A stretch of 64,000 bases of DNA from Nitrospirales bacterium (lineage in GTDB: Bacteria > Nitrospirota > Nitrospiria > Nitrospirales > UBA8639), in contig OZ245001.1 in NCBI GenBank assembly GCA_965223495.1, positions 3,735,833 through 3,799,832 of the forward strand. Reading direction: 5' to 3'. The notes beneath the pieces were generated by a model. It saw only the letters and a list, made by a program, of their open reading frames with translations, was not told the origin of the DNA and searched no databases. The stretch's first letter is position 1, and each line of letters begins with the position of its first letter. The translations under genes were made by a program, and so were the position numbers. This document shows, in pieces, positions 33,626 to 64,000 of the stretch.

Positions 33626-34809
33626 CAAGAAATATTCTTCAACCTATATCTTGCAAGTAAGGTAAAGAAGTTGACTCGCCATGGGCTTTGTTTAGACCCT
33701 ACACAGCCCAGCCATCCCTCCGTTTGCTTTATTTAAGGTTGTTTCCTAATCTTTTTAATAGATGTTGTCTTCGCCGAAGTGTTTAGGAGAGAAGAAGACT
33801 GGGAATTCGTATGAAAAAAATATTCGAGGAAATTATTATATTGGCTCCATGCGATCTAAAGTGGACACTTGACGGAAAAAGATCTTCACATGGACTTGGA
33901 TAAAGGGCGATGGAATGGCAAAAGCAAAGAATCCCATAACATTCGCTCATGAGTTTGGAATTGATGAGGAAAATCTAAGAAGTTTAGGTGTTTTGAACGT
34001 TACTCTAGCAATTGATACGAAGTTATTCATTGATCCTTTGTTGTTAAAAAGAAGTAAGCACGCTGAGATATCGGGAATTGCAGCCAACCTATACCGACAG
34101 CATTTTGAGCAAGTAATAAAACTCCTCCGCGCAAGTAAGGCAGAGAATGATCCTGCCTGGAAGAGTGCCAAAAAATTACTGGCATTCCCCGAAATTAGGG
34201 GCACATGCCTGGGATATGGTGCTGGATCAATTCATGGCAGTGGCTTTGGTGATGGGCTATCTTCAAGAATCATTTCTGTAGCTTCACAAATTATTGATAT
34301 AGGAATAGAAGATCCGGATTTATTTTCGGCAATGGCCTTGTTTGAGCCAGATTTTGGCCCGGATAGAATCAGTGATATGACAACAAACATCATATTTGGA
34401 GCCCTAGCAGATTTTAACGAACGTTTATTAAAAATCTTAGGCTTAAAGGGGGAAGATTATACATACAAAAATACAAAGGGAACCTTCATTCTAAATCCTT
34501 ACGAAAAAAAGGATACTCCTATCATATTGTTACCAATAGATATTTTGAAAGATCTTCCTATTGCACATGATTGGGATAGTGTAGCTGATGCTGCAAGTAA
34601 GAATGATCAGCTTCGTGATGAAGTAAATCTTCACATTGCTTCTATTTGGGAAAAGAAAGCGAAACGGGACAAAGAGAGCCTTAAGAAAGAAGCATTGTCA
34701 AGCAAGAGAGCATTTGAGTTGCTGCTTTCTATAATGAACGATGTTTCCGCAAATCCTTATGACGTTGTCTCAGATCCCAACGGGTTGGTTAGATGGGCTA
34801 CTAAAGGCC

Positions 34810-36474
34810 CAGACTGTGTGAAAACTTCACCTACCCCATCATGCGCCATGCGCTAATCCGGGGAGCAACCCATCTCCTCTTGAGTTGCTTGTTGAGGCGA
34901 ACTATTTTGTTTTGTAGCCCCACGAGCCACCTGATGAGTCCCAGGCGGCGCTCATACGGTCCTAGTTGCGTGTATGAAGGCGTGCCTTACGCTTGGATCG
35001 CCTGGAGGAGTGGCTTCACGCCGAGAATCGACAGCATCCGTTTGAAGTTATACGCCAACACATGCAAACTCATCTCGGTGCGAACATGCTTGAGTGTTTT
35101 CATTTGGAAGTGGGTCGAGCCCATCCAGGCTTTTAAGGTCCCGAATGGATGTTCCACCGTTTGTCGTCGAATGCGCATCCGCTCCGGTTCTCGTTCAAGA
35201 CGGGCTTCGGCGGCCTCGAGCACGGCTTCATGTTCCCAACGTGTCACTCGCCGATAGGTCCCGGTCGTACACTGCGATTTGATGGGACAGTTGGGGCAAC
35301 GGGAGGACCAGTATTTGTAAAGCGTTAAGCCCTTCTCCTGTGTCTCGAACCGCCAGATGAGGCGCTCCCCTGCTGGGCATTCATACTCATTCTTGTCCGC
35401 GTGGTAGACAAAGTCGCGTTTGCTGAATAACCCTTTCTTCGGACTTCCCGATGTCTGCGGCTTGGGAAGATAGGTTGTAATCTTCGACTCCTCGCAGGCT
35501 AGAAGTTCTTCACTGGTGAAGTAGCCCCGGTCAGCCACCACCTCGAGTGTCTCTGCTCCGATGGCCTCCTTCGCTTGTTGCCCCATGTGGTGCAACTGGT
35601 GTCGGTCGCTGCCCGTATTGGTCACCTCATGGGCGACAATCAAATGATGCTCTGCATCCACAGCCGTTTGGACGTTATACCCGACAATGCCAGTGCCCCT
35701 CGTTTTCATTGATCGCGCATCGGGGTCCGTTAGGGAGAGTTGGTGGGCCGGGGCTTGACGCAGCTGGACTTCGAGCGATTTCAGGCGTTTCATTTCGGTT
35801 TTCAGTGCCGTGATCTTGTCCTCGAGCCGATGAATCTTGTCTTGGGCCATCGTCGCTTCTTGTCGATCCGCGCTGGCAAGCTGGCTCAGATAGCGGGCAA
35901 TGCTCTCATCAATCTGTTGCAACCGATGTTTCATCTTGGCGGCGGTGAAGTTCTTGTCTCGGTTATTGACAGCCTTAAACTTACTGCCATCGATAGCTAC
36001 AAAGGCGTCAGCAAACAGATTGAGTTTCTTGCACAGCACGAGGAACTCGCGACAGACCAAGCGAATGGCGGGGCCATTGTTCTTGCGAAAGTCGGCGATC
36101 GTTTTAAAGTCCGGGGCTAAGTGTCCGGTCAGCCACATCAGTTCCACGTTGCGGTGGGCTTCGCGTTCTAGACGACGGCTGGACTGTACTCGGTTGAGAT
36201 ACCCGTAGACATAGAGCTTGAGTAGGGTCCTGGGATGGTAGGCGGGGCGGCCCGTTTCCTCTGAATGGGTCTTGAAGCCCAGCCCGGAGAGAGCCAGCTC
36301 GTCAATGAAGACATCGATGACTCGTACCGCGTTGTCCTCAGCGATGTAATCATCCAACCGTTCGGGGAACAGGGTCGCTTGGTGGCGATCAGTCCCTTGA
36401 ATAAATCCGCTCATTCATCACACCTCCGTGGGAAAGTGCCATTATACTCTCCGGCGGAGTTTTCACACAGCCTG
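34810..36474 (-). mobile_element. IS1182-family element, copy 1 (intact)
   Basis: Terminal IRs CAG(A/G)CTGTGTGAAAACT; GGCC target duplication at 34806-34809 and 36475-36478. Confidence 0.95.
34987..36414 (-). CDS. IS1182 family DDE transposase
   Basis: LKLYVYGY...SSRRLE; PDFKTIADFR; IDGSK; TDPDAR; ADRGY; VEHPFG. Confidence 0.96.
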   Translation of the reverse strand: MSGFIQGTDRHQATLFPERLDDYIAEDNAVRVIDVFIDELALSGLGFKTHSEETGRPAYHPRTLLKLYVYGYLNRVQSSRRLEREAHRNVELMWLTGHLAPDFKTIADFRKNNGPAIRLVCREFLVLCKKLNLFADAFVAIDGSKFKAVNNRDKNFTAAKMKHRLQQIDESIARYLSQLASADRQEATMAQDKIHRLEDKITALKTEMKRLKSLEVQLRQAPAHQLSLTDPDARSMKTRGTGIVGYNVQTAVDAEHHLIVAHEVTNTGSDRHQLHHMGQQAKEAIGAETLEVVADRGYFTSEELLACEESKITTYLPKPQTSGSPKKGLFSKRDFVYHADKNEYECPAGERLIWRFETQEKGLTLYKYWSSRCPNCPIKSQCTTGTYRRVTRWEHEAVLEAAEARLEREPERMRIRRQTVEHPFGTLKAWMGSTHFQMKTLKHVRTEMSLHVLAYNFKRMLSILGVKPLLQAIQA

Positions 36475-37189
36475 GGCCATCAGTATGCTAAGCAGTTTCC
36501 TTTAAAATTCTCCAATACTTCAATAAAAACTATGGATGAAATATTTTCTATGGTTGAAGAAATAGTGACTCAGTTTCGTCAACTGATTGAACACAATGGT
36601 TTAAATAAAGAATTGTATGGAGGTAATAAAAAACCTCGTCATGAGTCTACGGCACAACGCCTGTTCTTTGCGGTGGCTTACTCCTATTGTAAAACAAATA
36701 ATGTAGACGTTTCCCCTGAGATAGATACAGGAAATGGACAAATTGACTTTAAGTTTGCAACTGGTTTCAAGGAAAGAGTACTTGTTGAAGTAAAATTATC
36801 AACTAATTCTAATGTCGTTCGGGGGTACACAACACAATTAGAATTGTATAAAACGGCTCAAGAAACATTGCGGGCCCTTTACTTGGTTATAGATGTCGGG
36901 GCAATGGGAAACAAATCTGATAATTTAATTAAAATAAGAAATGACGCTCGAGAACGAGGAGACCCATTATCAAGTCTCGAGTTTGTTGATGGAACTTTGA
37001 AAGTTCCGCCTAGCAAAAGAAAAGAATGACAAAATTCCGAATGTCCGCTTTTGACCGCTTACAATCCAATGCTGCCAATCCCAAAGCGTTTGGCAGAGAA
37101 GCTAGGTAAAGCACCAACATGCTTGAAGACTCTAACTGCACTAACGACGTGCAATTTTTTTGTGGTTTTAGAAAACCCAAATTAAAACA

Positions 37190-44231: not shown

Positions 44232-44658
44232 CACGGCATCCGTGTAATACCAGGTGTTGGAGGGTTCCGACCTTCGTTGAAAGATGAGCGAAGAAGAAAT
44301 GGGGATTTGTCTGTTCTCGACCCAATAGAGTAACAGCGTGATTGAACGAGTAGAATTGTTCGCCCCGATTTAGAAGCCCTGTCCTTATTCCAGAGACGCG
44401 GCTCTGGTGAATCAACGTTGTCGGCTTTTGGGAGCAAGGGAAACTGATTGCATAAGATCGGCCGAGGAATTGACGGTCGGTTCTTGGACGGCTCCCGACC
44501 CAAAGCGGTCATTAGTCTGGGAAGGACAAGTTGTTCTCCTGGGCAAATTAGACAGAATAGTGTTTTCTGTTTTATGGATAACTTTCACTTCTTTCCTAAG
44601 CTTTTAACACCTTTTGCTTATTTGGCAGGAAATACTGGGCCATGTACTTATGAAGTAG

Positions 44659-45327: not shown

Positions 45328-45369
45328 AAGGTCCGCTTTTTGGCCGGCTACCGACCCAAAGGCGACATT
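45328..45369. repeat. Imperfect palindrome of the AATGTCCGCTT..GGCC/GACCCAAAGCGGACATT family
   Basis: Related copies at 37040, 44473, 45861, 46307, 51536, 53226, 56558, 60432, 62125 and 63551. Confidence 0.8.
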
Positions 45370-45385
45370 CGGATAGCTGTCAATT

Positions 45386-45865
45386 ATGGATGGAAACAAG
45401 ATAAGGACAGCAATTCGCGATTTCCTCGGTCTGCTAGAAAACGGTGGCTTGTCAGTCGAGCAAGCCGAGGAAAAATTACCGGCCCTACTAGATCACCTCG
45501 CATTTGCACAGTCTTTCGTTTCGTTCACGTATGACGACGCGGAATACCCCGATTCCCCTGCCCAGAACTACGATACATTACGGGCAACCGTCACAAAGCG
45601 ATTCCCAAATTACGGCTATTACAACATTGCCGAGAAAATCACAACCGACATAGGTGATTCGGGAACATTGGTGGGTGACGCCATAGATGATCTAGCCGAC
45701 ATTGCCCGAGACCTCTATAAGGTTGAGTGGTATTGGTCAAATACCAGCGAAGCCAACGCCCTATTCCACTTCGGGAATGACTTCAGGCATCACTGGCGAC
45801 AGCATCTCAGGGGATTGCAACTATACCTAGATGCCCTAGAGCTTGCTCGCGACCTTCCGGAATGA
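45386..45865 (+). CDS. DUF5063-like protein
   Basis: GD.IDDLADI..DL...HW..H motif. Confidence 0.72.
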   Translation: MDGNKIRTAIRDFLGLLENGGLSVEQAEEKLPALLDHLAFAQSFVSFTYDDAEYPDSPAQNYDTLRATVTKRFPNYGYYNIAEKITTDIGDSGTLVGDAIDDLADIARDLYKVEWYWSNTSEANALFHFGNDFRHHWRQHLRGLQLYLDALELARDLPE

Positions 45866-45911
45866 CCGGAATTGGCTGATTCCCGACCCCAAGCAGTCAT
45901 TCATCTATTTT

Positions 45912-49874: not shown

Positions 49875-50552
49875 TTTGAGTCCAGGTGTCCCACACCTAT
49901 TCGTCATGCGCTCGAGGGACCGACATGCTTCATGGCACGTAAAATGGGTTGGCCCGGGTGGCTTAAGGCCGAGATGATGCGGGGCTGCCTTTGCACCACG
50001 ACCGGCTTCACCACCGCGACGAATACGGCCAGGACTGAGGTTCAACCGGTAAAAAACGATGCAGATTGTGCCCTCCCTTTAAAATTGCACTGACACACAT
50101 CTTTTGTACTGACAAACTAGCGTTACCTCGCCCTTCGGACTGCACAGATTCGACAAACTCTGCTTCTCTCTGTTTGCTTTATTTCAGACTTTTTCCTAGT
50201 CTTTTTTTTTGCATCATCGCCCTTATTTTGCCGAAGGAAGAAGATTTATATCTTTATAAAAAGGATTGGCGGAGAAATATGTTAATGAACGCATACGACT
50301 CAAAGCGGGCATTCTGGTACTAGGCGCATAACTGGGAAAAGGTCGGATTGGCCTGGTCCCTTCAAACTAGTCCAGGTTCGGAGCGGACCAAAGGTCAGGT
50401 AACACGACCTAAGACGTGAGCTACGCCTTAAACAAACGGGGAACATTGTTGCTTGAGATTACACGTTAAAACGTCGGCAAGAACAACATCGTGTCCATTT
50501 CCCATACGGGCGAATATCTTTTGCTCTGGAGAGAATGAAGGAGTAAAGAATC

Positions 50553-51449: not shown

Positions 51450-51553
51450 TGGTGCGATCTTGTCACGGTCGTGGCCTGCCTTTTTCAAACTCGACCAGAT
51501 TTCGAGCTGGGATTCCGCAACCTCTACTACGTTTGAATAGTCCGCTCCTAGCC

Positions 51554-53225
51554 CAGGCTGTGTGAAAACTCCGCAGGAGAGTATAATGGCACTTTCCCAC
51601 GGAGGTGTCATGAATGAGCGGATTTATTCAAGGCGACGATCGCCACCAAGCGACTCTTTTTCCTGAACGGTTGGATGAATACATCGCTGAGGACAACGCG
51701 GTACGAGTGATCGATGTCTTCATTGACGAGCTGGATCTCTCCGGGTTGGGCTTCAAGATCCCTTCAGAAGAAACGGGCCGGCCCGCCTACCACCTCACAA
51801 CCTTGTTGAAGCTGTATGTCTACGGCTATCTCAACCGAGTACAGTCCAGCCGTCGCCTGGAACGCAAAGCCCACCGCAACGTGGAACTCATGTGGCTGAC
51901 CGGCCACTTAGCCCTGGACTTTAAGACGATCGCTGACTTTCGCATGAACAATGGCCCCGCCATTCGCTTGGTCTGTCGCGAGTTCATCCTGCTCTGCAAG
52001 ACACTCAATCTGTTTGCTGACGCCGGTGTGGCTATCGACGGCAGTCAGTTCAAGGCCGTGAATAATCGAGACCGAAACTTCACCAAGGCCAAGCTCCAGC
52101 GCCGCTTACAACAGATTGATGAGAGCCTTGCCCGCTATCTGAGCCAGCTTGCCAGCGCGGATCGACACGAAGCGACGATGGCCCAAGACAAAATTCACCG
52201 GCTCGAGGACAAGATCACGGCGCTGAAAAGCAGAAATGAAACGTCTGAAAACGCTCGCAGTCCACATGCATCAAGCGCCGGACCACCAGCTCTCCCTGAC
52301 GGACCCCGATGCGTGGTCGATGGCCACCAGTGGGCGCGGCACGGGGATGGTGGGGTACAACGTGCAGACCGCCGTCGAGGCGACGCACCACTTGATTGTG
52401 GCCCATGAGGTCATTAATGAAGGCCATGACCGTCACCAGTTGCACCACATGGCCCAACACGCGAAGGCGGCCATCGGAGCGGAGACGCTTGAGGTGGTGG
52501 CCGACCGGGGCTACTTCAGGAGTGAAGAACTTCTGGCCTGCGAGGAGTCGAAGATTACGACCTATCTCCCCAAGCCTCAGACATCAGGAAGCCCGAAGAA
52601 AGGCTTCTTGAGTAAACGCGACTTCATCTATCACGCGGACACGAATGAGTATGCCTGCCCAGCCGGGGAACGCTTGATCTGGCGATTCGAGACACAGGAG
52701 AAAGGCTTAACGCTTCACAAATACTGGTCCTCCCACTGCCCCAACTGTCCCATCAAGTCGCAGTGTACGACCGGGACCTATCGGCGAGTGACACACTGGG
52801 AACATGAAGCCGTGCTTGAGGCTGCCGAAGCCCGTCTCGAGCGAGAACCAGAGCGGATGCGCACGCGACGACAAACCGTCGAGCATCCATTTGGCACCTT
52901 AAAGTCCTGGATGGGCTCAACTCACTTCCAAACCAAAACCCTCAAGTAGGTGCGCACCGAGATGAGCTTGCATGTGTTGGCGTACAATTTCAAACGAGTA
53001 TTATCGATTCTTGGTGTGAAGCCACTCCTCCAGGCGCTCCAGGCATAGGTGGCGCCCTCATAGACGCAAAAAGGGACTCCTCAACGCCCCCCTTGAGGGA
53101 GCAGGTTGCCCGTGGGGACACAAAACAGAAAAGCTCATCTTAACGGCCAACTCAAGACGAGATGGGCTGACGCCCCAATAAGCACATGGCAAATGATGAG
53201 CGAATTGACTTTTTCACACAGTCTG
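51554..53225 (+). mobile_element. IS1182-family element, copy 2 (defective)
   Basis: IRs CAGGCTGTGTGAAAACT ... TTTTCACACAGTCTG. Confidence 0.92.
51614..53048 (+). pseudogene. IS1182 transposase with a +1 frameshift (~52228) and a premature TAG (52947-52949)
   Basis: Split ORFs 51614-52408 and 52236-52949; the C-terminal tail continues after the TAG. Confidence 0.88.
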
Positions 53226-53590
53226 GACCCAAAGCGGACATGCCGTTGCCTGTATTTATAGACTTTTGTATTTCTACCAGCGTGCCCAAGTTCGATCTTT
53301 GTACGATCCATAATACTTTTCAAGCATTAACCCTATCTCACCCCAAGGACCATCTGACAATCCATCAGGTGCACTGGCCATCCACGCCACTCTTGCCTGT
53401 CACCGCCTCCCTTTTTAAAAAACTACGTATCATGGGACCGAGTCTTAGGTCAGGTTAGGGAAAAGTTTTTTCGATAAATGAAGCTCCGGCTTTTCAGATT
53501 TCTTTTAGGATTTCAAAGGAAAGGTCTAAAAAGACAAGAAAGGGGAGAAGTAAGGAAATCCTGTGCTGTCCCATCTTGGGAGGCATTACA

Positions 53591-53619
53591 TTGACACTGT
53601 CTGACCATGGGTATAGGGT
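53591..53619 (+). promoter_or_regulatory. Possible sigma70 promoter
   Basis: TTGACA-N17-TAGGGT. Confidence 0.45.
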
Positions 53620-53865
53620 GAAGGTACGACGTATGATTCCACGTTGACATTCCTATCCCTCGCGCCTTCCTCTACTTCTCCTGCGCGTCTGATTCTGTTG
53701 TCTGTGCCATCTTACGCCTAACCTTTCCCTGTCTTTGCCGTCGCCTGGGGAGTCAGGGCTAATGGACGTTCGAGCAGGTTCTCTGAGCGGACGGTTCTGA
53801 TTGTCGGGGCTTATGGGCTAGAGTGGCTGCCAGGTTGACTGTCTCCATAGAGGAGGTCTCTCCTG

Positions 53866-53964
53866 TTGGAACTGAACTCATGGCTAGAAACGGGTATGGT
53901 CACCAGCGGGCTGGTGACGGTGTTTGGCCTGGTCATGTGGTTGTTATTCCGAAGTGGCCCATAA
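53866..53964 (+). CDS. Putative 32-aa single-TM small protein (absent from the ORF track)
   Basis: GAGGAGG RBS, TTG start; MELNSWLETGMVTSGLVTVFGLVMWLLFRSGP. Confidence 0.5.
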   Translation: MELNSWLETGMVTSGLVTVFGLVMWLLFRSGP

Positions 53965-54076
53965 GCAAACTCTTTCCTTACCTATGAGATTTGTTCACTT
54001 GCCTTTACAACCACTCAAGGTGTTTCGGGGCGACCACGTTCACCAGACAAGGGCTTCGTAGCAAAAGAGATGCGCC

Positions 54077-54301
54077 ATGTTTTGTCCACGCTGCCATGGG
54101 CTGATGACCAAAGAAACCTGTATCGATCTGAAGGACGAAATGGGGATTATCATGATCCCAGTTTGGCATTGTTTGCTTTGTGGGGAATTGGTGGACCACC
54201 TCATTTTACAACATCGTCACCATGTCCCGGCACCCATGAAAGATCATGCCCGGGTGGCACCTAATACGGTAATCACCGGCTTCCATGGTTCCCATGAATA
54301 A
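54077..54301 (+). CDS. Small CxxC...CxxC zinc-finger-like protein
   Basis: CPRCHGLM...WHCLLCGELVD. Confidence 0.72.
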   Translation: MFCPRCHGLMTKETCIDLKDEMGIIMIPVWHCLLCGELVDHLILQHRHHVPAPMKDHARVAPNTVITGFHGSHE

Positions 54302-54449
54302 TGTTTCTCAAGGCTGCCCCCAAGTGGAACGTTGGACTCCTGAGCCTGATCCTATTCATAGAGCACAAACCCGCTTCTTCATCACCCTGGTCTTAGGTAC
54401 GAGGTACGGATTCCAACACAAATACGATAGTCTTTTTGGAGGCACACAA

Positions 54450-54914
54450 ATGAAATTTTCCGTTGGCGTCAACGTACTGGCCGGGCTTGTTTTTCTGATG
54501 GGGGTCGGGTGTGGGCCTTCCGACTCCAGTTCTTCACCAGAGCGGGCCGGAAAGGAAAACGAAGAAGACGTGTCAGTCAGAGAACCCACAGTGATTGATC
54601 CAGTCTCACCACCTCAGGACAAAGAGCTTCAGGAGTATATCAAGGTGATAGGACAGCAAATGACAGAATTACAAAATTCCCATGCCGATCTGGTCAAAGC
54701 GGCACAACACGTTGGGTCTGATCCTGAACACCAGAGGTTATGGGAAACTTCGTTGGATGACCTCACCCTCAAGAGCAATGAAGTTGAGAGAAAAATTCAG
54801 GCCCTCAAGGCAGCCAAAGAGCAGGAGTGGATCACCCTTCAGCCGGGCTTAACCCACGCCCTGCAGGAACTCAGTGAATCATATGAACGGGCCCTTGCAC
54901 GAGTAGCTGGGTGA
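54450..54914 (+). CDS. Lipoprotein, coiled-coil
   Basis: GGAGG RBS; lipobox GVGC. Confidence 0.78.
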   Translation: MKFSVGVNVLAGLVFLMGVGCGPSDSSSSPERAGKENEEDVSVREPTVIDPVSPPQDKELQEYIKVIGQQMTELQNSHADLVKAAQHVGSDPEHQRLWETSLDDLTLKSNEVERKIQALKAAKEQEWITLQPGLTHALQELSESYERALARVAG

Positions 54915-55026
54915 AGAAGTCAGAACATAAACATGGAGTTCCATCATGCGCTGGAGACGCCACCAGGTCCCACCCTGAGAAGTGGGACGGGAACACAATC
55001 CACCAAACGCACATGGAAGGGTAGAA

Positions 55027-55314
55027 ATGCTCATGGATGTAGACACTCTGCTATGCGTCGCCTCCGAACTCGGATTAGTGATAACCACTCAGCGGCAAGG
55101 AGATCATGCCTTTCGTTGTCATATCCTTGAGATCGATCTTGGCCAGAAGGAGCAAGATTCCTTTCGACTCATTGCCGATGGGTTTGAAGCGGGGACGTGT
55201 TTGGAGGCCCAGACCCATGCGTATCATTATGCCCAACGATTATATCCGGCGCGGGCCGATCAGATGAAAAAGCCCCCCTATTTAATTTGGGGTGGGCCTT
55301 CCATCCATTTGTAA
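55027..55314 (+). CDS. Hypothetical protein
   Basis: Coding-like ORF ending KKPPYLIWGGP. Confidence 0.65.
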   Translation: MLMDVDTLLCVASELGLVITTQRQGDHAFRCHILEIDLGQKEQDSFRLIADGFEAGTCLEAQTHAYHYAQRLYPARADQMKKPPYLIWGGPSIHL

Positions 55315-55394
55315 TGGGTGGTCCAGAACTAGGGTGTGAAGAGGAATCATCCTCACCGCTAATGTTTCGAGAGCGTTAATCGAAAGGAGTGGAC

Positions 55395-55688
55395 ATGAAA
55401 TTACCAAAAACTTGGGGAAGTAAGACTCGAAAAACCAAACCCAAAGCACCTTCTCTTCCCATTCGCGGGAAGGTTGTCAAAATATCTGATTTTCAAAAGA
55501 CGTCGGATCCCGGCACCATTCAAGATATCAGAAGTCAGGGCCAGATCCTGGCCAGTCGAGGATTGGGGCAGGAGGTGCCAAGCTACGCATCTGAAAAAGA
55601 GCCAGTCCCGGACATGACTTTACTTCCTAGAAGGAGCAGACAAACAGGCCGACACCAGAATTCATCAATCACCGACCCAAAATGCTGA
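55395..55688 (+). CDS. Hypothetical basic protein
   Basis: AGGAG RBS; no recognised motif. Confidence 0.4.
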   Translation: MKLPKTWGSKTRKTKPKAPSLPIRGKVVKISDFQKTSDPGTIQDIRSQGQILASRGLGQEVPSYASEKEPVPDMTLLPRRSRQTGRHQNSSITDPKC

Positions 55689-55922
55689 GACTTGACTATC
55701 TACTGTGGTAAGCATGTGGTAGAGTGAAGACACTCATGGCCTTGGGCTTTGGCCATAAGCCGTCAACCGAACAAAGCCCGTTACCGGTGTGATTTTGCCC
55801 GAGAGATTCCTCGGAAGAGTTTGACCCCAGTCGCCTGAACGACGCGTCCGCGGCCTATCCCTTCGAAGTGTTCCACCTCACTCGAGCCTAAGACACTATC
55901 ATTTATCAAAAGGAGGAACCCC

Positions 55923-56225
55923 ATGGGTTCAAAATTGTATGTTGGTGGGTTGCCGTATTCGGCGACTCAAGCCGAATTAACCGATCTGTTTTCCGCGCAT
56001 GGCACGGTCCAAACCGTGAACGTCATTATGGACAAATACTCTGGCCAATCCAAAGGGTTTGGTTTTGTCGAAATGTCGTCAGGAGAAGAAGCTCAGGCCG
56101 CCATTGCCGCCTTAAACTCTACAGAGTTTGGCGGAAGAACGTTGACGGTCAATGAGGCGAGACCTCAAGCGCCACGCAGTGGTGGTCGGGATTTTGAGGG
56201 AAGTAAACGTCGCAGTCGGTTCTAA
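55923..56225 (+). CDS. RRM-domain RNA-binding protein
   Basis: RNP2 (LYVGGL) and RNP1 (KGFGFVEM); Gly/Arg tail. Confidence 0.96.
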   Translation: MGSKLYVGGLPYSATQAELTDLFSAHGTVQTVNVIMDKYSGQSKGFGFVEMSSGEEAQAAIAALNSTEFGGRTLTVNEARPQAPRSGGRDFEGSKRRSRF

Positions 56226-56247
56226 CGAACTGAATCACCTTCAGAAG

Positions 56248-56280
56248 GACGGGAGGGGCAACAAGGCCCCTCCCGTTTTT
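56248..56280 (+). terminator. Rho-independent terminator
   Basis: ACGGGAGGGGC-loop-GCCCCTCCCGT followed by a T-run. Confidence 0.85.
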
Positions 56281-57154
56281 CATAACACCGAGCAGGTGCC
56301 GCACACATTGCCCAATCCCCACTAACCGACTCCAAAACAGGTTTTTTACCTCATCAATTTTCACAAGCCCTTCACTGGCAATGCCTTCTCTTTCTCAAAC
56401 CCACTGACGGCCAATCAGCTGCTCTAAATCATAGTGGACTTTAAATAGGTCAGAGGGATTCAAGCCTTATTTGCATCAGCCACTCCATTTGCACACCAGA
56501 AACAATGGGATAACCCTTCATTGATCGTTAGCTGAATCTTACGGCCAAATCATCTCCAAAGTCGGCTTTTGGCAACCCAAAGCGGACATTCCGTTGCCCG
56601 TATTTGTTAGCCTTTGGTATTTTTAATCAGCGGACCACAGGTTTGGTCCTTGTACAGTCCACCAATTTCCATCGATTACTTATATCCATGCTGCATTGGT
56701 TATTTTTCAATGGTGCTAGGTTGGTGCTATGTTTGGAAATTCTTGGTTGAGTATCTCCAAGATCGCGCAATTGCAAATATGGATAGAATATTAGACTTCG
56801 GATCGATGGGAAAGGGATTGTCTAAGATATTGAAAACCTGACATCCCCTCTCTTGTCTTAGGTTTTGTTCTCCTCGCCTACAAGTCTCTCCTTGCGGCTC
56901 TTAGACGGGTTTTATCTCTCTTTTGCTCTCTTTTTAACACCTATTTAACCCTAAAAAGAGTAATCCATCTTTTACGATTTAAATATTCTCAATCGTTAGG
57001 TCAATTGCTTCATCGAGTAGTGGCCGTTGGGGCGTTTGGGTGACGTTTCTCCTGCCTGGGGACCCACTCTCTCAGAAAGAATCCTCCCTTCTCTTTCTCG
57101 GCAGTCGAGCGGACTGATGCGATTGAGGACAAAACTATACGTTTGTCAAAGGGG

Positions 57155-57412
57155 TTAAACACAGTGCCGTTGTAAACGTTTGATCATACAGGGAACTTCG
57201 CTGTTCCCCTCTCTCCGCTTTTTTTGAAGCACCATGAACCCAAGACTGACCAGGGCCATCCCCAACCAAGGCATTGGCAGCCCAGACTGCATTCCTTGAC
57301 TGAAAGCGAGCGTCTGAACTTGGCTCAGAATCTGGTCTGCCGCTTGGGCACCCCCTAGCAGCATCATGGTCATCATCGAACCCAAGATCATTCCACAAAA
57401 TAGCTTCAACAT
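57155..57412 (-). CDS. Small secreted/membrane protein with a C-terminal TM + basic cluster
   Basis: Signal peptide (AQA); LPMPWLGMALVSLGFMVLQKKRR. Confidence 0.6.
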   Translation of the reverse strand: MLKLFCGMILGSMMTMMLLGGAQAADQILSQVQTLAFSQGMQSGLPMPWLGMALVSLGFMVLQKKRREGNSEVPCMIKRLQRHCV

Positions 57413-58511
57413 GGTCGTCCCCCTTGAAAAGAGGTTATCTTACTAGCCACCTGTCGATTCTCCGAAGGGAAAGGAAATCCAACAAACATTGTAGAAACCT
57501 CCACCGTTCTCCGTTCCCCTTGGCCTCTTCAAAGATTTCGCACATAAATAGATTTTGGGAAATACCCCATAAGACCGAGTCCGCTGATTTCTTTTCGAGC
57601 CCATTAGTCTTGTCCGTTGCAAACTCAAACATTTCCTGTCTCCCTCGGTGGAGTGCTATCTCACTCAGCGGTTCCAGTATGGGGTTTGGGTTTCCCAAAA
57701 GATCGAATACTCTCCACACCTGAACATGCAAGAATATTCGTGGCGCTTGAAGAAGGCTGCCGCAGCAACGGCACCCAAGGGGCACCAAGTGTGCTCAAAT
57801 TCTCCTATTGGTCCGATGTATTAAAGTCCAAAATGGGATAAGATGTCAGGGACACCGGAAAGTAACCCTATGCCACCTACCCACCCCTTACCATCTTCAC
57901 GCAACGCCGGCTCAAACGTCGATTCCTCGGCTCGTCTGTCGCTAGCTATCCGGACACTTGACCGATTGATCATTCGCATAGACCAACTCGTGACCTTAAC
58001 GGATCCTTTATTGACAGAGACGTCTCGTCGCCCAGCAGTCTCAAAGCCCTCCGAGGCCTCTGCCCGGCAGGACCTTACTTCCTAGGCTGCCCCCTGGGCA
58101 CTCCACATGCCCAGTCCTCACTCTCAACCACTACCAAGCGGAGGGCACCCCCATAAAAGCCAATGACGCTGCTGGGGGGATGACTCAACTCGTCTCATGT
58201 GAACGAAGCCTGTAGGGTCTTTCCTACAAAGAGGGGAAGTAGCCTACATGAGGGTCATAAGCGGGGAGGGGAGCTCTTCCCTGGTTGCACCCACTTCTTC
58301 TCAATCAAATCAATTAGTTGCTTTTCCCTCACCCGTCTGTGCCCCAACGGGCATATATTATGCTTTTTGTTAGTGAGAGGGTAGAGATCATCCTGAACGG
58401 CGTCTGAGGTCAACTCCCAGTCGAGGGGAGAAGGCAAGTTACAACCTGCCAGATGGGAGGGCCAACTCCTCCCGGTGTGTACTTGATGCCTTCGGGGAAA
58501 AGGAGAAGAGG

Positions 58512-58976
58512 GTGATGAAACTATGCCAAGACAACTTGCCCTGGGAGAGCCCCCTTATCCGTTCACCCATCACCCCTCCCTGCATCTTGGTGGTAGAAGA
58601 TAATCGGTCTGTCGCCGTCCTGTTAGAAACGACCTTAAGGTCTTGGGGCTATGAAGTTTGTGTGGGCCGGAATGGTCAGGAGGGTTTGGGGCTTCTAACT
58701 ATTCATACCGTGGATGTCATTTTCCTGGACCTGGAAATGCCCGTGATGGATGGTCGCACCATGCTCAAGGAAGTCCAGTTGGCCGGATATTCCATGCCGG
58801 TGTGGGTCATGTCGGGTGGCCTGAATAGACAAGCTCTTTCGCCCCTTCTTGCTGAGGGGGCGCAGGGCTTTTTGATGAAACCCTTCGGGCTTGCCGCGCT
58901 TGAACAGGCGTTGGGTCAGATCTTTGGTCCATCTCTGTCCTCAGTCCCTCTGAACAAGACTGAGTTTTCATTGTAG
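58512..58976 (+). CDS. Stand-alone response regulator receiver protein
   Basis: ILVVEDN, FLDLEMPVMDG and FLMKPF motifs. Confidence 0.92.
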   Translation: MMKLCQDNLPWESPLIRSPITPPCILVVEDNRSVAVLLETTLRSWGYEVCVGRNGQEGLGLLTIHTVDVIFLDLEMPVMDGRTMLKEVQLAGYSMPVWVMSGGLNRQALSPLLAEGAQGFLMKPFGLAALEQALGQIFGPSLSSVPLNKTEFSL

Positions 58977-59551
58977 GACAATTTGTCCTCTCGCCCTTCC
59001 CAAGTGGCTTATAACAAACCTGGGATGCTCTCTTCCCCCGTAAACCCGCCAAATCAATCCGGATCTTCTCCTCCCCACTAAATTTCCGGCGGGTCGTTCG
59101 CTTCAGGTCTCGGACCAGTTTGTCCGCTTCACGTTTTGTGCCTCATTTTGGCTTCTACCTCACTCCTTTTCAGAGATATGATGTACTCAAAACATCACTT
59201 TAGCAAGCTCATTTCATTTGGACCAATTAGGCTGACACGGAACATCCGCTGCCAGCCAGTAACCCCTCATTCAGAAGCAGGAAATCTTGATGGTCGCAAA
59301 GTGACCTACAGCGGGCAGGAGGGAATCTTGAACGGGGCAGGTTACGACCTAGTTCTTTTGAGGGGTGTTGACAATCAAGGGAGAAACGGTACAGTTCCAC
59401 TGTCCCTTTCCTTCTCCCCTCAGGTTTCCTACGGAATCGCGGTTGGAGAAGCGAAAGGAGATAACAGGAAAAGATAATCATCCTTGGTTGGTTTATGCAG
59501 TAACCTGCCTCGTCCGGTTGCGTCAGGCACATCATTATAGGAGGTGTTTTC

Positions 59552-60223
59552 ATGAAACATGTTCTACCCCCACCATTCTTTATTCGACTACTGGCCGTCG
59601 GTATCCTGGTTGTGGGATTAACCGACTCCACCTTCGGCCAAGTGGACCCACCCCCCGCCGGGCCGGTGAGTGATCTCGCCACCACGGCCGAAATGTCGGC
59701 TCAGCACGACATGATCCAACAGGACATTGCCGATGTTGACACGAACCTGGGGGCCCAGATTCAAGAGGTCAAAGAGTTGGTGGAGGCACTCGGGTCCAAC
59801 GATCCAGGGTTTCACGACCCCTGTAATAGTGGAGGGACCGAAGTGGGTGACCGCTGGATTGTCTCCCGCTCGGGTCGGACGGTCTGCGATAAAGATACGA
59901 ATACCACCTGGGAGCAGCAGCCGACTGTTCTGAAACGCACCTGGGACGACAGTGTCGCCTATTGCCAGAACTTAGGCTTAGGTGGCGGGTGGGCCTTGCC
60001 CTCGATCGACATCTTAGTGAGCCTGGTGGATACCAATAATACTGATCCAGCCCTGCCCACGGACCACCCCTTTACCAATGTCCAGACCGATTCTAATTTT
60101 GGCTATTGGTCGGCGACGACGCCGCCTGACGCCGCCGGCAATCGGGTTGGCGTCAGTTTCTTCAATGGCGACCAGTTTAGCGAACCGAACTTCTTTTCCA
60201 ACTGGACGTGGTGTGCGCGCTAG
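59552..60223 (+). CDS. Secreted DUF1566 (Lcl C-terminal) domain protein
   Basis: D..T.TTWEQ; TWDDSVAYC; WALPSI..L; YWSATT; WCAR. Confidence 0.88.
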   Translation: MKHVLPPPFFIRLLAVGILVVGLTDSTFGQVDPPPAGPVSDLATTAEMSAQHDMIQQDIADVDTNLGAQIQEVKELVEALGSNDPGFHDPCNSGGTEVGDRWIVSRSGRTVCDKDTNTTWEQQPTVLKRTWDDSVAYCQNLGLGGGWALPSIDILVSLVDTNNTDPALPTDHPFTNVQTDSNFGYWSATTPPDAAGNRVGVSFFNGDQFSEPNFFSNWTWCAR

Positions 60224-60358
60224 ACCAGGGGTGATGCGGATCTTCCCCGAACCTTTGACGAGGCTGCGCTTCGGCACGGGCTTGGCGGGATTGGTTCCTT
60301 GGAGATATCGGAGAAAAAATAGGGCTTAGCCAATCACGATAAAGAAAATGTTCACATT

Positions 60359-60391
60359 AAGCCTCACACGATCTGGTGTGGGGCTTTTTTG
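60359..60391 (+). terminator. Rho-independent terminator
   Basis: AAGCCTCACAC-loop-GTGTGGGGCTTTTTT. Confidence 0.75.
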
Positions 60392-60448
60392 TTCTATGCC
60401 ATTAGTCTTCCCTGCCTTGTGGTGTGATTGAAATGTCGGCTTCTGGCC

Positions 60449-62124
60449 GAGGCTGTGTAAAAACTCACGTTCTCTCTTCTTTCACTTCTTCCATAGGCAT
60501 GTCAGCCCATCTCTGTTTCATGTTTTTGGTTTGCGAGGACGGGCATCGTCATCTTGAGGCACCACGTCGCTTCCTGATGCCTTACGAGTGGCGTTGAGGA
60601 GCACTTTTTGGCGTCGGTGAGTGCGCCACTTATGCCTGAATTGCCCGGAGGAGTGGCTTCACGCCAAGGATGGCCAACACCCGTTTGAAGTTGTACGCCA
60701 ACACATGCAAACTCATCTCGGTGCGCACCTACTTGAGGGTTTTGGTTTGGAAGTGGGTGGCGCCCATCCAGGCTTTCAAGGTCCCAAATGGATGCTCGAC
60801 CGTTTGGCGTCGCGTGCGCATCCGTTCCGGTTCTCGTTCAAGGCGGGCTTCGGTGGCCTCAAGGACCGCCTCCTGTTCCCAACGTGTCACGCGTCGATAG
60901 GTTCCGGTCGTACACTGCGACTTGATGGGACAGGTCGGGCAGTGTGAGGACCAATATTTGTGCAGTGTCAAGCCGTTCTCTTGTGTCTCGAATCGCCAAA
61001 TCAGGCGTTCCCCGGCTGGGCATGCATACTCATTCTTGTCTGCGTGGTACACGAAGTCCTGTTTGCTGAATAACCCTTTCTTCGTGCTCCCCGATGTCTG
61101 GGGCTTGGGGAGATACGTCGTGATCTTCGCCTGCTCACAGGCTAGGAGTTCTTCCCCCGTGAAGTACCCGCGATCAGCGACCACCTCGAGCGTTTCCGAT
61201 CCGATGGCCTCCTTGGCTTGGTGTGCCATGTAGTGTAATTGGTGCCGATCATGCCCCACATTGGTGACCTCGTGTGTCACGATCAAATGGTGCGTCGCCT
61301 CGACGGCGGTCTGCACGTTGTACCCCACCATCCCCGTGCCGCGCCCACTGGTGGCCATCGACCACGCATCGGGGTCCGTCAGGGAGAGCTGGTGGTCCGG
61401 CGCTTGATGCATGTGGACTGCGAGCGTTTTCAGACGTTTCATTTCTGCTTTTCAGCGCCGTGATCTTGTCCTCGAGCCGGTGAATTTTGTCTTGGGCCAT
61501 CGTCGCTTCGTGTCGATCCGCGCTGGCGATCTGGCTCAGATAGCGGGCAAGGCTCTCATCAATCTGTTGTAAGCGGCGCTGCAGCTTGGCCTTGGTAAAG
61601 TTCCGGTCTCGATTATTCACGGCCTTGAACTGACTGCCGTCGATAGCCACAAAGGCGTCAGCAAACAGATTGAGTGTCTTGCAGAGCACGATGAACTCGC
61701 GACAGACCAAGCGAATGGCGGGGCCATTGTTCATGCGAAAGTCAGCGATCGTCTTAAAGTCCAGGGCTAAGTGGCCGGTCAGCCACATGAGTTCCACGTT
61801 GCGGTGGGCTTCGCGTTCTAGGCGACGGCTGGACTGTACTCGGTTGAGATAGCCGTAGACATACAGCTTCAACAGGGTCCTTGGATGGTACGCGGGCCGG
61901 CCCGTTTCCTCTGACTGGGTCTTGAAGCCCAGCCCGGAGAGATTCAGCTCGTCAATGAAGACATCGATCACCCGAACGGCGTTGTCCTCAGCGATGTATT
62001 CATCCAACCGTTCGGGGAACAGCGTCGCTTGGTGGCGATCGTCGCCTTGAATAAATCCGCTCATTCCTGACACCTCCCTTGGAAAGGTGCCGTATACCTT
62101 CTTCAAGAGGTTTCACACAGTCTG
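60449..62124 (-). mobile_element. IS1182-family element, copy 3 (defective)
   Basis: Ends GAGGCTGTGTAAAAACTC and GTTTCACACAGTCTG. Confidence 0.9.
60630..62064 (-). pseudogene. IS1182 transposase with the same +1 frameshift and TAG as copy 2
   Basis: Split ORFs 61249-62106 and 60729-61442. Confidence 0.88.
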
Positions 62125-62241
62125 GACCCAAAACGGACATTACGGTCCCACGCGCATCGTTGCCAAAATATATAGGGTAGCCTTTGCCGAACGATGACAC
62201 CCTGACGTAAGATTTCCTGTAGCGGAAAAAAGAACAAAAAA

Positions 62242-62267
62242 AGGAGCAGTCCAGCAGAACTGCTCCT
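62242..62267 (-). terminator. Terminator of the hsp20 operon
   Basis: AGGAGCAGT-loop-ACTGCTCCT with a T-run on the minus strand. Confidence 0.75.
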
Positions 62268-62292
62268 CCTCATCCTGAATTACTATATCCGG

Positions 62293-62706
62293 TTATGCTT
62301 CGGTGATTTCAACTTTACGGGGCTTGGCTGGGCCCACTTTTGGTAAAGTGACACGCAAGACCCCATGCTTTAAATTCGCCGTGATATTGGCCTGATCGAT
62401 TACCTCGGATAGCGTAAACTGCCGAAGATATTTGCCGGTATTGAACTCCTGCTGGATATACTGTTCTTCTGTCGGAATAGAGATCGAAGGAACTCCGGTT
62501 AAAGTCAAGACACCTTCGCGGAGATCGATGCTTACATCATCGGATTGAACTCCCGGCATATCTGCCACAATGGTGAGCGCATGGTCGTCTTCAAATATAT
62601 CCACGTTGGGAGAATAAACACGGCCAGGAACCGTTTGCTCTGAAGCTGTTTTGACCTCCTGCTTGTCTCGAGCTTGAATATCTTGTGCTTGCGCAGTCAT
62701 GGTCAA
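62293..62706 (-). CDS. Hsp20/alpha-crystallin small heat shock protein
   Basis: PNVDIFE, ADMPGV and A.LKHGVL.VTLPK motifs. Confidence 0.95.
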   Translation of the reverse strand: MTMTAQAQDIQARDKQEVKTASEQTVPGRVYSPNVDIFEDDHALTIVADMPGVQSDDVSIDLREGVLTLTGVPSISIPTEEQYIQQEFNTGKYLRQFTLSEVIDQANITANLKHGVLRVTLPKVGPAKPRKVEITEA

Positions 62707-62773
62707 CTTCCTCCTTTCCAGAATTCAATGGGCTTCCCAAAGAGTTTTCTGTCTCACTTTTGCGATTCGGCTT

Positions 62774-63241
62774 TTAAACACTAATCGAAATCTTTTTGGG
62801 CTTAGCACTTTCGGCCTTGGGCAGTACCATCATTAAAATTCCGTGCCGGTATTTGGCCTGGACCTTTTCACTGTTGACATCGCTTGGCAAGTTTAACTGA
62901 CGCCGGAATTTTCCGGCTTCTCGTTCTCGTCGATGATATCTCACCTGTTGATCCTCAGTGGGAATCTTTCGTTCTCCAGAGATAGTCAAACTCCGGCCCG
63001 TCACTGAGACGTCTAACTCATCCAGAGTCAAGCCAGGAATCTCTGATCGGACGTAGAAGTTGTCATGATCTTGAGACACATTCAATAGTGGAAATACACC
63101 TGCAGTCGTCAATCCATCATCTGGTCCCATTCGAAATCCCATTAACTGATCGAGATCGCGACGAAGCCTTCCTAATTCTGAGAAGCTCGTCCCCAAACTA
63201 TCAAAAGGCCAGTTTTCCAATCTTTTTATGAACATAGTCAT
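62774..63241 (-). CDS. Hsp20/alpha-crystallin small heat shock protein
   Basis: FPLLNV, ISGERK, RRERE.GKF.R and A.YRHGIL..LPK motifs. Confidence 0.95.
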   Translation of the reverse strand: MTMFIKRLENWPFDSLGTSFSELGRLRRDLDQLMGFRMGPDDGLTTAGVFPLLNVSQDHDNFYVRSEIPGLTLDELDVSVTGRSLTISGERKIPTEDQQVRYHRREREAGKFRRQLNLPSDVNSEKVQAKYRHGILMMVLPKAESAKPKKISISV

Positions 63242-63567
63242 TCCCTCCCTCAAGGCAAGACCGGTGATCGCCATCGACCTAGATCCTGCTAATTTTTCAC
63301 TGACCTCGAGGTTGTGTCGTCAATTGTTTTCGCTTTTTAGGTAATGCCAGATTGTTATTTGTCAACCAGGGGGACCGAAAAAATTTTCCGATTTACCGTC
63401 CCTACGTAAACTGCTTTTCGACAATCTCCGACATTGGTCGGAGATTCCTATCTTCCATACCCCTTTTACTGCGGGTTAGGCGTTGCCCCCCAAAAACCCC
63501 ACACGGTACAGGGTATCGATTTAAAAATTCTGGTGTATGGCTTCTGGGCAAACGTCCGCTTCTGGCC

Positions 63568-64000
63568 CAGACTGTGTGAAAACTTCACCTACCCCATCAT
63601 GCGCCATGCGCTAATCCGGGGAGCAACCCATCTCCTCTTGAGTTGCTTGTTGAGGCGAACTATTTTGTTTTGTAGCCCCACGAGCCACCTGATGAGTCCC
63701 AGGCGGCGCTCATACGGTCCTAGTTGCGTGTATGAAGGCGTGCCTTACGCTTGGATCGCCTGGAGGAGTGGCTTCACGCCGAGAATCGACAGCATCCGTT
63801 TGAAGTTATACGCCAACACATGCAAACTCATCTCGGTGCGAACATGCTTGAGTGTTTTCATTTGGAAGTGGGTCGAGCCCATCCAGGCTTTTAAGGTCCC
63901 GAATGGATGTTCCACCGTTTGTCGTCGAATGCGCATCCGCTCCGGTTCTCGTTCAAGACGGGCTTCGGCGGCCTCGAGCACGGCTTCATGTTCCCAACGT
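63568..64000 (-). mobile_element. IS1182-family element, copy 4 (partial; runs off the window)
   Basis: Appears identical to copy 1 (34810-35242) over the visible part. Confidence 0.93.

Follow-up and report, generated by a model that had tools for sequence, protein, structure and literature searches.

Insertion sequences (ISs) of the IS1182 family are about 1.3-1.95 kb long and carry one transposase open reading frame (ORF) and terminal inverted repeats. Specialization on particular targets is known for several other ISs, with IS1111-attC elements, IS4321/IS5075, ISPpu9/ISPpu10 and IS1397 directed to integron attC sites, the terminal repeats of Tn21 or repetitive extragenic palindromes and bacterial interspersed mosaic elements (REP/BIME). 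Of these, the IS110/IS1111 elements use RNA-guided DEDD transposases, the remaining site-targeting ISs belong to the IS3 family, and a target duplication is usually absent. The res hunters Tn5053/Tn402 insert in the site of a recombinase, and dependence on the recombinase has been shown for Tn5053. Within the IS1182 family itself, targeting of palindromes or hairpins has already been published for IS1272/TnSha1 of staphylococci (PMC4923244, PMC5678879), and PMC4923244 cites Siguier et al. 2015 for such targeting by other members of the family. Another member, ISPse1 of Paracoccus, is a 1653-bp element that has inverted repeats of 16/16 bp, makes a 4-bp duplication and was captured in functional form (PMC3281130). 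Here we analyse a stretch of 64,000 nucleotides (hereafter the window) from a Nitrospirales bacterium (assembly GCA_965223495.1, contig OZ245001.1, positions 3,735,833 to 3,799,832), which carries copies of an IS1182-family element next to halves of a recurrent palindrome. We consider it likely, and hold this view with some confidence, that the element is an ordinary IS1182-family DDE element with a strong preference for the dyad centre of a pre-existing, arm-defined palindrome, where it generates a 4-bp duplication. A first-pass annotation of the window knew of no such targeting in the IS1182 family; in view of the work on IS1272 (PMC4923244, PMC5678879), this supposed novelty has to be given up.

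To describe the target preference, we collected from fetched loci of the genus 61 unique insertions with both ends present (21 full-length copies and 40 MITEs, which are miniature transposable elements with inverted repeats) and scored them against the layout arm(6)-N4-duplication(4)-N4-arm(6), with arms GTCCGC/GCGGAC and at most one mismatch. At least one arm was found in register at 48 of the 61 insertions (79%), compared with 461 (0.68%) of 67,452 control GRYC sites of the analysed 4.71-Mb genome (designated G000; other G numbers denote relatives). Both arms were in register at 15 insertions and at none of the 67,452 controls. The mean dyad symmetry about the centre, out of 12, was 5.4 for insertions and 3.0 for a 20,000-site GRYC sample. 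The association between the IS and the palindrome is far beyond chance, and the preference over random GGCC-like sites that the first-pass annotation had anticipated is clear.

The same preference extends to other phyla. A scan of one genome per species identified transposase relatives, 63-74% identical and with the same terminal repeats, in Gamma-, Alpha- and Betaproteobacteria, Planctomycetota, Chloroflexia, Acidobacteriota, Desulfuromonadales and Nitrospina. Among 57 insertions outside Nitrospirales, at least one arm is in register at 38 and both arms at 17, and the cross-phylum consensus reads A-GTCCGCT-TGGGTC to the left of the IS and GG-C--AAGCGGAC-T to its right. A perfect 4-bp duplication is present at 46 of the 57, namely GGTC (24), GACC (13), GGCC (5) and AGTA, AGGT, ACCT and GGGG (one each). 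In all four insertions with odd centres the arms are recognisable at the same distance (for example, GTCCGCtccaGGGG-IS-GGGGtaaaGCGGAC). Since the arms are kept around AGTA, AGGT, ACCT and GGGG, the register is measured from the arms; in other words, it is the arms, not GGCC, that define the target.

All four copies of the IS in G000 fall in 31 kb of accessory DNA, and IS copies cluster in relatives as well. One could therefore suppose that the IS and the palindromes simply pile up together in a tolerant variable island, with no preference beyond GGCC. This coincidence is refuted by the register statistics, and we assign it practically no probability: the junctions of dozens of independent insertions share a single fixed register, to the base pair, the two-armed configuration seen at a quarter of the genus insertions (15/61) never occurs at random GRYC sites, and the same pattern is present in unrelated hosts.

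The element belongs, as a genuine DDE insertion sequence, to the IS1182 family. The transposase of copy 1 scores 460 bits against the IS1182-family model NF033551 (cut-off 270), which covers amino acids 8-462 of 475, and it matches DUF772 (PF05598), DDE_Tnp_1 (PF01609) and DDE_Tnp_1_6 (PF13751) of Pfam, each above cut-off. DUF772 is N-terminal, and the DDE catalytic domain is of the IS5/IS1182 type. The IS is 1665 bp long, with a single 475-aa transposase ORF and 16-bp terminal inverted repeats CAGRCTGTGTGAAAAC, so that length, ORF number and terminal repeats fall inside the range of the family. BLAST of copy 1 against the whole G000 genome returned only four full copies. Copy 1 (34810-36474, minus strand, 1665 bp) has an intact transposase gene (34987-36414) and lies inside a protein-coding gene. 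Copy 4 (minus strand) starts at 63568 and runs past the window edge at 64000 to the equivalent of position 65232. Copies 1 and 4 are 100% identical, encode the intact 475-aa protein and are presumably active. Copy 2 (51554-53225, plus strand, 1672 bp) is defective, with a 1-nt frameshift and a premature TAG, and copy 3 (60449-62124, minus strand, 1676 bp), also defective, has the opposite orientation. Both show 82-87% identity to the other copies and to one another (87% between the two). The frameshift and the premature TAG are common to copies 2 and 3 despite their different sites, opposite orientations and 87% identity. This defective lineage appears to have gone on moving, presumably through mobilisation in trans, as for MITEs. 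MITEs with the ends of this IS are indeed present in G000, as a single 139-bp copy and three 182-bp copies (genome positions 2200954-2201135, 3863522-3863703, 3912589-3912770 and 4520895-4521033), together with one solo end. The 182-bp MITEs include two that are 100% identical, suggesting recent mobilisation. Among 50 genomes of the genus, the 139-bp type was found in 12 and the 182-bp type in 6.

How the insertions might arise can be outlined as follows. A 4-bp staggered cut on transposition would produce the 4-bp target duplication. The target would be the dyad centre of a site of about 24-28 bp, (A)TGTCCGC-N4-(4 bp)-N4-GCGGACA(T), the central 4 bp being usually GGCC, GGTC or GACC. Its two 6-8-bp arms, each 4 bp from the duplicated tetranucleotide, would set the register, with the central bases being less important. 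Most likely, the transposase complex recognizes a two-fold symmetric duplex, or else DNA held by an arm-bound protein; capture of an extruded hairpin appears less likely. Insertion splits the site and is expected to disable it.

Because GGCC is itself palindromic, copy 1 alone would be ambiguous about the duplication. However, its gene provides a test: when the flanks are joined with exactly one of the two GGCC (34806-34809 on the left, 36475-36478 on the right), a 481-aa open frame results, whereas joining with two or none brings a stop at most 7 codons from the junction. The perfect duplication at GGCC attributed to copy 1 at the outset is thus upheld, with the additions that the IS lies in a gene and that the target has a modest dyad symmetry of 7/12, a score reached by about 1.6% of random GRYC sites. 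The interrupted gene, of about 481 aa, occupies positions 33915-37029 and gives no match in Pfam. In the relative G014, an empty site ATGTCCGCTTTGGGTCGCTTTGCGACCATTAC can be compared with a paralogous filled site, ...TTTGGGTC-IS-GGTCGCTTTGCGACCATTAC, where one GGTC has become two. Perfect 4-bp direct repeats flank 35 of the 61 genus insertions, and 20 of these 35 are the non-palindromic GGTC or GACC; over the genus and the other phyla together, duplications are perfect at 81 of 118 insertions.

The duplication also settles to which side the palindrome arms belong. They lie outside it, separated by it from the IS ends, which makes the arms target DNA and not ends of the IS. The opposite possibility is that the palindrome halves belong to the IS ends, as the first-pass annotation had already considered; they would be extended terminal repeats, and intact palindromes would be joined ends or excision footprints. 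The halves do flank relatives of the IS across many phyla, and the centre GGCAACC of the intact palindrome at 56558-56590 could be read as two copies of the duplication minus one base. Nevertheless, besides the 4-bp direct duplication standing between IS ends and arms, copy 1 has no palindrome arms although it is identical to copy 4, it moved all the same, and its removal leaving one GGCC restores the gene. Identical IS copies in G014 and in a gammaproteobacterial metagenome-assembled genome are surrounded by different arms and spacers. The relative G018 has neither the IS nor a MITE, yet it has many sites, with a cluster of at least 8. The idea of extended IS ends is thereby largely refuted, and we regard it as very improbable. 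The sites evidently predate the IS and are independent of it.

The relatives contributed partial homologues of single flanks only. The empty homologue of the copy 2 site in G009 has a single GACC at its centre, and that of the right flank of copy 3 in G043 reads TGTCCGCTTTC-GACC-CAAAGCAGACATTACGGG; these single-GACC homologues support duplication followed by decay. They bear on the unequal flanks of the two copies, AGCC/GACC at copy 2 and GGCC/GACC at copy 3. Copies 2 and 3 are old defective copies, in our reading with decayed duplications, and at their age a change or two among the 8 duplicated bases is to be expected and calls for no special explanation. Their mismatched flanks fit such decay. 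The first-pass annotation had instead proposed later recombination between copies, that is, homologous recombination between ISs residing in different sites. We found this neither needed nor shown, and consider it unlikely, though not negligible. On its side, most mismatched pairs in the genus join tetranucleotides each of which is legitimate as a duplication (GGCC, GGTC, GACC), and in G014 the left flank of the copy at locus L035 is the reverse complement of the right flank of another copy; such a flank exchange indicates that IS-mediated rearrangement occurs in this group. But swapping the flanks of copies 2 and 3, the sole inverted pair of their lineage, would give AGCC/GGCC and GGTC/GACC, still with three mismatches. 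Moreover, with both copies defective and diverged by 13-18%, about 0.5 changes would be predicted per 8 duplicated bases from decay by itself, and the empty homologues hold a single GACC. Two further candidates were tried and rejected: an inversion between copies 2 and 3 that restores equal duplications, which leaves the mismatch total unchanged, and deamination of methylated GGCC as the source of GGCC/GGTC/GACC mismatches, as G000 is without a C5-methyltransferase domain (positive controls worked). GGCC is not depleted in G000 (observed/expected 0.96). Separately, locus L036 of G014 (C3:860001-880000) holds 4-5 IS copies in about 20 kb, as well as site-bearing segments duplicated in inverted orientation, and the flanks of one of the copies look exchanged with another copy's.

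A separate question is whether the transposase reads a sequence or a structure. It could recognize an extruded hairpin or cruciform and insert in its stem or tip, the arms being conserved just because a single repeat family supplies the hairpins that are available. Several observations can be accommodated in this way. In the same IS family, the hairpins to which IS1272/TnSha1 are directed show little conservation of sequence (PMC4923244, PMC5678879). Dyad symmetry is kept by targets outside the palindrome family (7/12 at copy 1, 8/12 at locus L111 and 7/12 at L102, against a control mean of 3.0). When compared with long-form sites such as that at 45328-45369, copies 2 and 3 resemble a replacement of the 7-nt tip GGCTACC. 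Two insertions have inverted-type flanks, and an unrelated element of the IS30 family (see below) sits at the same centre. Nonetheless, we consider hairpin recognition quite unlikely. IS1272 makes no duplication and deletes part of its target, whereas perfect 4-bp direct duplications predominate here (81/118). One arm sequence recurs in hosts of at least six phyla, the N4 spacers are poorly complementary, and in the empty homologues of the copy 2 and copy 3 sites the centre is a simple one of 4 bp, which fits duplication and decay. Folding of the intact and the reconstructed sites as single-stranded DNA predicts weak structures (-3.4 to -8.2 kcal/mol, z-scores from -0.04 to no lower than -3.1), with stems of 6-7 bp and loops of 10-14 nt. 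Taken together, weak folds, poorly complementary spacers and the same arms across phyla fit recognition of duplex half-sites better than recognition of a hairpin. Of the GGCC-centred hairpin preference originally suggested for the transposase, the preference for the palindrome family stands; GGCC turns out not to be the determinant, since centres vary around fixed arms, and the hairpins that folding was expected to bring out are weak.

The IS30-family element lies at genome positions 259984-261236, between GATGTCCGCTTTGGGT and GTCGCAATGCGACC, at what is a unit's dyad centre, and appears to have duplicated 2 bp, GT. The same left junction recurs at another IS30-family copy and at copies in relatives. 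IS30-family elements with ends TGTGAGTTCAAC... are also present from genome position 4464769 onward and at 4519297-4519918, likewise at the dyad centre of a palindrome unit and with GT apparently duplicated. In addition, MITEs are wedged between IS30 ends and the unit, and one IS30 copy has an IS1182-type MITE end abutting its terminus. Two unrelated transposases at one centre suggest that the site itself is attractive, be it through protein binding, bending or symmetry.

In the window, the half-sites can be listed with their coordinates, all on the plus strand. Copy 2 lies between AATAGTCCGCTCCTAGCC (51536-51553, after a TIR-domain gene) and GACCCAAAGCGGACAT (53226-53241), and copy 3 between AATGTCGGCTTCTGGCC (60432-60448, with a terminator-like hairpin and about 45 conserved nt upstream, both recurring in relatives) and GACCCAAAACGGACATT (62125-62141). 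The left half-site of copy 4 is AACGTCCGCTTCTGGCC (63551-63567); its right flank, outside the window, is GGCCGAATGCCAAC, with the arm GCCAAC, and GGCC stands on either side of the IS. The flank strings and coordinates given in the first-pass annotation proved exact to the base, and copies 2 and 3 do split members of one palindrome family, as it had claimed. The same claim for copy 4 holds for the left half, which is good, but the right flank makes a poor second half. Uninterrupted members of the family, again on the plus strand, are found at 56558-56590 (after an RRM gene, with the 7-nt centre GGCAACC in place of 4 nt), at 44468-44513 (two overlapping units, ending in GACCCAAAGCGGTCATT) and at 45328-45369 (AAGGTCCGCTTTTTGGCCGGCTACCGACCCAAAGGCGACATT, after a TPR gene), with diverged ones at 45859-45901 (after a DUF5063 gene) and 50284-50313 (AATGAACGC-N12-GCGGGCATT); a degenerate member occupies 37040-37088 (AATGTCCGCTTTTGACC ... 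CCCAAAGCG). For the 7-nt centre at 56558-56590, as against 4 nt in the empty homologues, an excision footprint and the 7-nt form seen near recombinase genes are both conceivable.

The palindromes of the window sit 3' of plus-strand genes of mixed function (TPR, DUF5063, TIR, RRM, Lcl_C). Sites are placed at borders of gene modules, in agreement with the earlier view that the IS homes to cargo boundaries. They form part of a larger conserved intergenic element, which comprises, in order, a hairpin like an intrinsic terminator, some 45 conserved nt, one unit or two and a further stretch of some 85 conserved nt, and which recurs in relatives. The part at 60360-60448, which includes the terminator-like hairpin AGCCTCACAC...GTGTGGGGCTTTTTT, has homologues in G009 and G014 (loci L054, L055, L066 and L068). 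The conserved stretch of about 85 nt is present at 53227-53310 and 56575-56661, the sequence after the right half of copy 2 being 79% identical to that past the intact site. A search of positions 33-64 kb against Rfam (E<=0.1) gave no family match. The palindrome family has about 10 members in G000, nearly all within about 27 kb, and therefore lacks the character of a high-copy dispersed repeat of the REP/BIME kind. Genes of Y1_Tnp type, the class of the REP-associated RAYT transposases, are present in G000, G009, G014 and G018, none of them near the site arrays. Relatives have 5-21 half-site matches each, and across the genus the half-site is commoner than its reversed control. Genome-wide counts of GTCCGC-N10-32-GCGGAC in G000 and in GC-rich hosts (1-2 mismatches) were too noisy and were not used.

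What the palindromes are may be indicated by their neighbours. In G009, a site and the gene of a 208-aa tyrosine recombinase, Xer-like in its catalytic domain, are 45 nt apart; in G006, units stand on either side of the corresponding gene, and the IS is inside the downstream unit. Metagenomes very commonly contain relatives of this recombinase at 66-76% identity, often with a unit about 40 nt downstream. At 80 metagenome loci coding for such relatives, 13 units were centred 26-52 nt after the recombinase gene, compared with about 0.4 expected, and three of these loci also have IS or MITE ends adjoining the arms. Counted by locus, a site was so placed at 13 of 69. In G000 the recombinase is a pseudogene at genome positions 3865697-3866162 (about 129.9-130.3 kb in window-equivalent coordinates), 83 nt from a unit and about 66 kb past the window. 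Among the ORFs scanned in the window itself, no recombinase was found. Since the sites follow genes in variable cassette-like regions and flank a recombinase gene, they are probably core sites of the 208-aa tyrosine recombinase, a reading in which we have moderate confidence. The consensus ATGTCnGCTnnC-GRYC-GnnAGCGGACnT can also be read as an 11-6-11 dif/pdif-like geometry, but this is mere resemblance. The alternative of integron attC sites was considered and rejected, as we saw neither an integron integrase nor RYYYAAC/GTTRRRY cores. Specifically, no TIGR02249 integron integrase scored above cut-off in G000 (best 78 bits against 265), none was found in 41 genus genomes at E<=1e-40 (the control genomes being integron-free, this search had no positive control), and the arms AATGTCCGC/GCGGACATT, judged by eye, are without AAC...GTT cores.

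It is tempting to go one step further and to view this IS clade as a hunter that is dedicated to core sites of a so far undescribed system for gene-module exchange, common to several phyla and run by the conserved ~208-aa recombinase. We consider this possible but rather doubtful. A recombinase-bound or bent site would then guide insertion to the dyad centre, much as for the Tn5053 res hunters. If true, this would explain the presence of the IS30-family element at the same centre; furthermore, the IS and its MITEs would disable sites and could serve as a genome-wide marker for finding them.

Several points weigh against our interpretation of an arm-defined target and its extension to a recombinase. 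About one-fifth of the genus insertions and one-third of the cross-phylum insertions have no recognisable in-register arm, and the preference is accordingly not absolute. The two insertions with inverted-type flanks, GGTC-IS-GACC and GACC-IS-GGTC, fit the replacement of a hairpin tip better than duplication. For none of the four G000 copies was an orthologous empty site found in relatives, in which the region is not conserved between species. The link between recombinase and sites is one of adjacency only, and where a site is the nearest to the recombinase, its centre is often of 7 nt and not of 4 nt. Finally, the whole explanation is read from static insertions.

If the proposed target is correct, it has several implications. 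It supplies a precise testable target for a widespread IS clade, namely a pair of 6-8-bp arms at fixed register together with a 4-bp duplication, and would add to the IS1182 family a sequence-register mode beside the hairpin-replacing mode of IS1272. It would also explain why IS copies and MITEs cluster in accessory islands, at borders of gene modules. In addition, the junctions of ISs and MITEs point out the centre of a palindrome family that is linked to a small tyrosine recombinase, very conserved but unstudied, and so may offer an independent route into a possible module-exchange system.

Compared with described systems, the element shares with IS1272/TnSha1 the family, inverted-repeat targets often just 3' of genes, repeated independent hits per site and both orientations (PMC4923244, PMC5678879). 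It differs in that IS1272 goes to hairpins that are unrelated in sequence, leaves no duplication and removes part of the hairpin, whereas here we see one motif, a fixed register and mostly a 4-bp duplication. Replacement of the inverted repeat, the hallmark of IS1272, is not what we observe, as judged from the 81 perfect duplications among 118 insertions, the restoration of the ORF with one GGCC and inverted-type flanks at two insertions only. In anatomy, ISPse1 is nearly the same, and the part of its description available to us does not mention a target preference (PMC3281130). IS1111-attC, IS4321/IS5075 (IS110/IS1111), ISPpu9/ISPpu10 and IS1397 resemble our element in being specialized on short structured sites (for some of them, PMC11187229 and PMC12288879). 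Unlike the IS110/IS1111 and IS3-family site-targeters, however, ours is of the classical DDE type, having inverted repeats and making a 4-bp duplication. Tn5053/Tn402 would be a possible model if an arm-bound recombinase guides insertion; in G000 this recombinase is a pseudogene. ISAjo2-related elements (IS1202 family) are likewise DDE ISs that insert at a fixed distance in or near tyrosine recombinase core sites bounding modules, the pdif/dif sites of Acinetobacter (PMC10132070). They do so 5 bp from the XerC arm and in one orientation, whereas the present element belongs to another family, inserts at the dyad centre in both orientations and is associated with a small recombinase other than XerC/XerD. 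These pdif-targeting elements of the IS1202 family are the closest functional analogue (PMC10132070). It is clear, then, that palindrome homing by this IS and its MITEs does not make a new kind of mobile element but is a new example, spread over many phyla, of a known habit.

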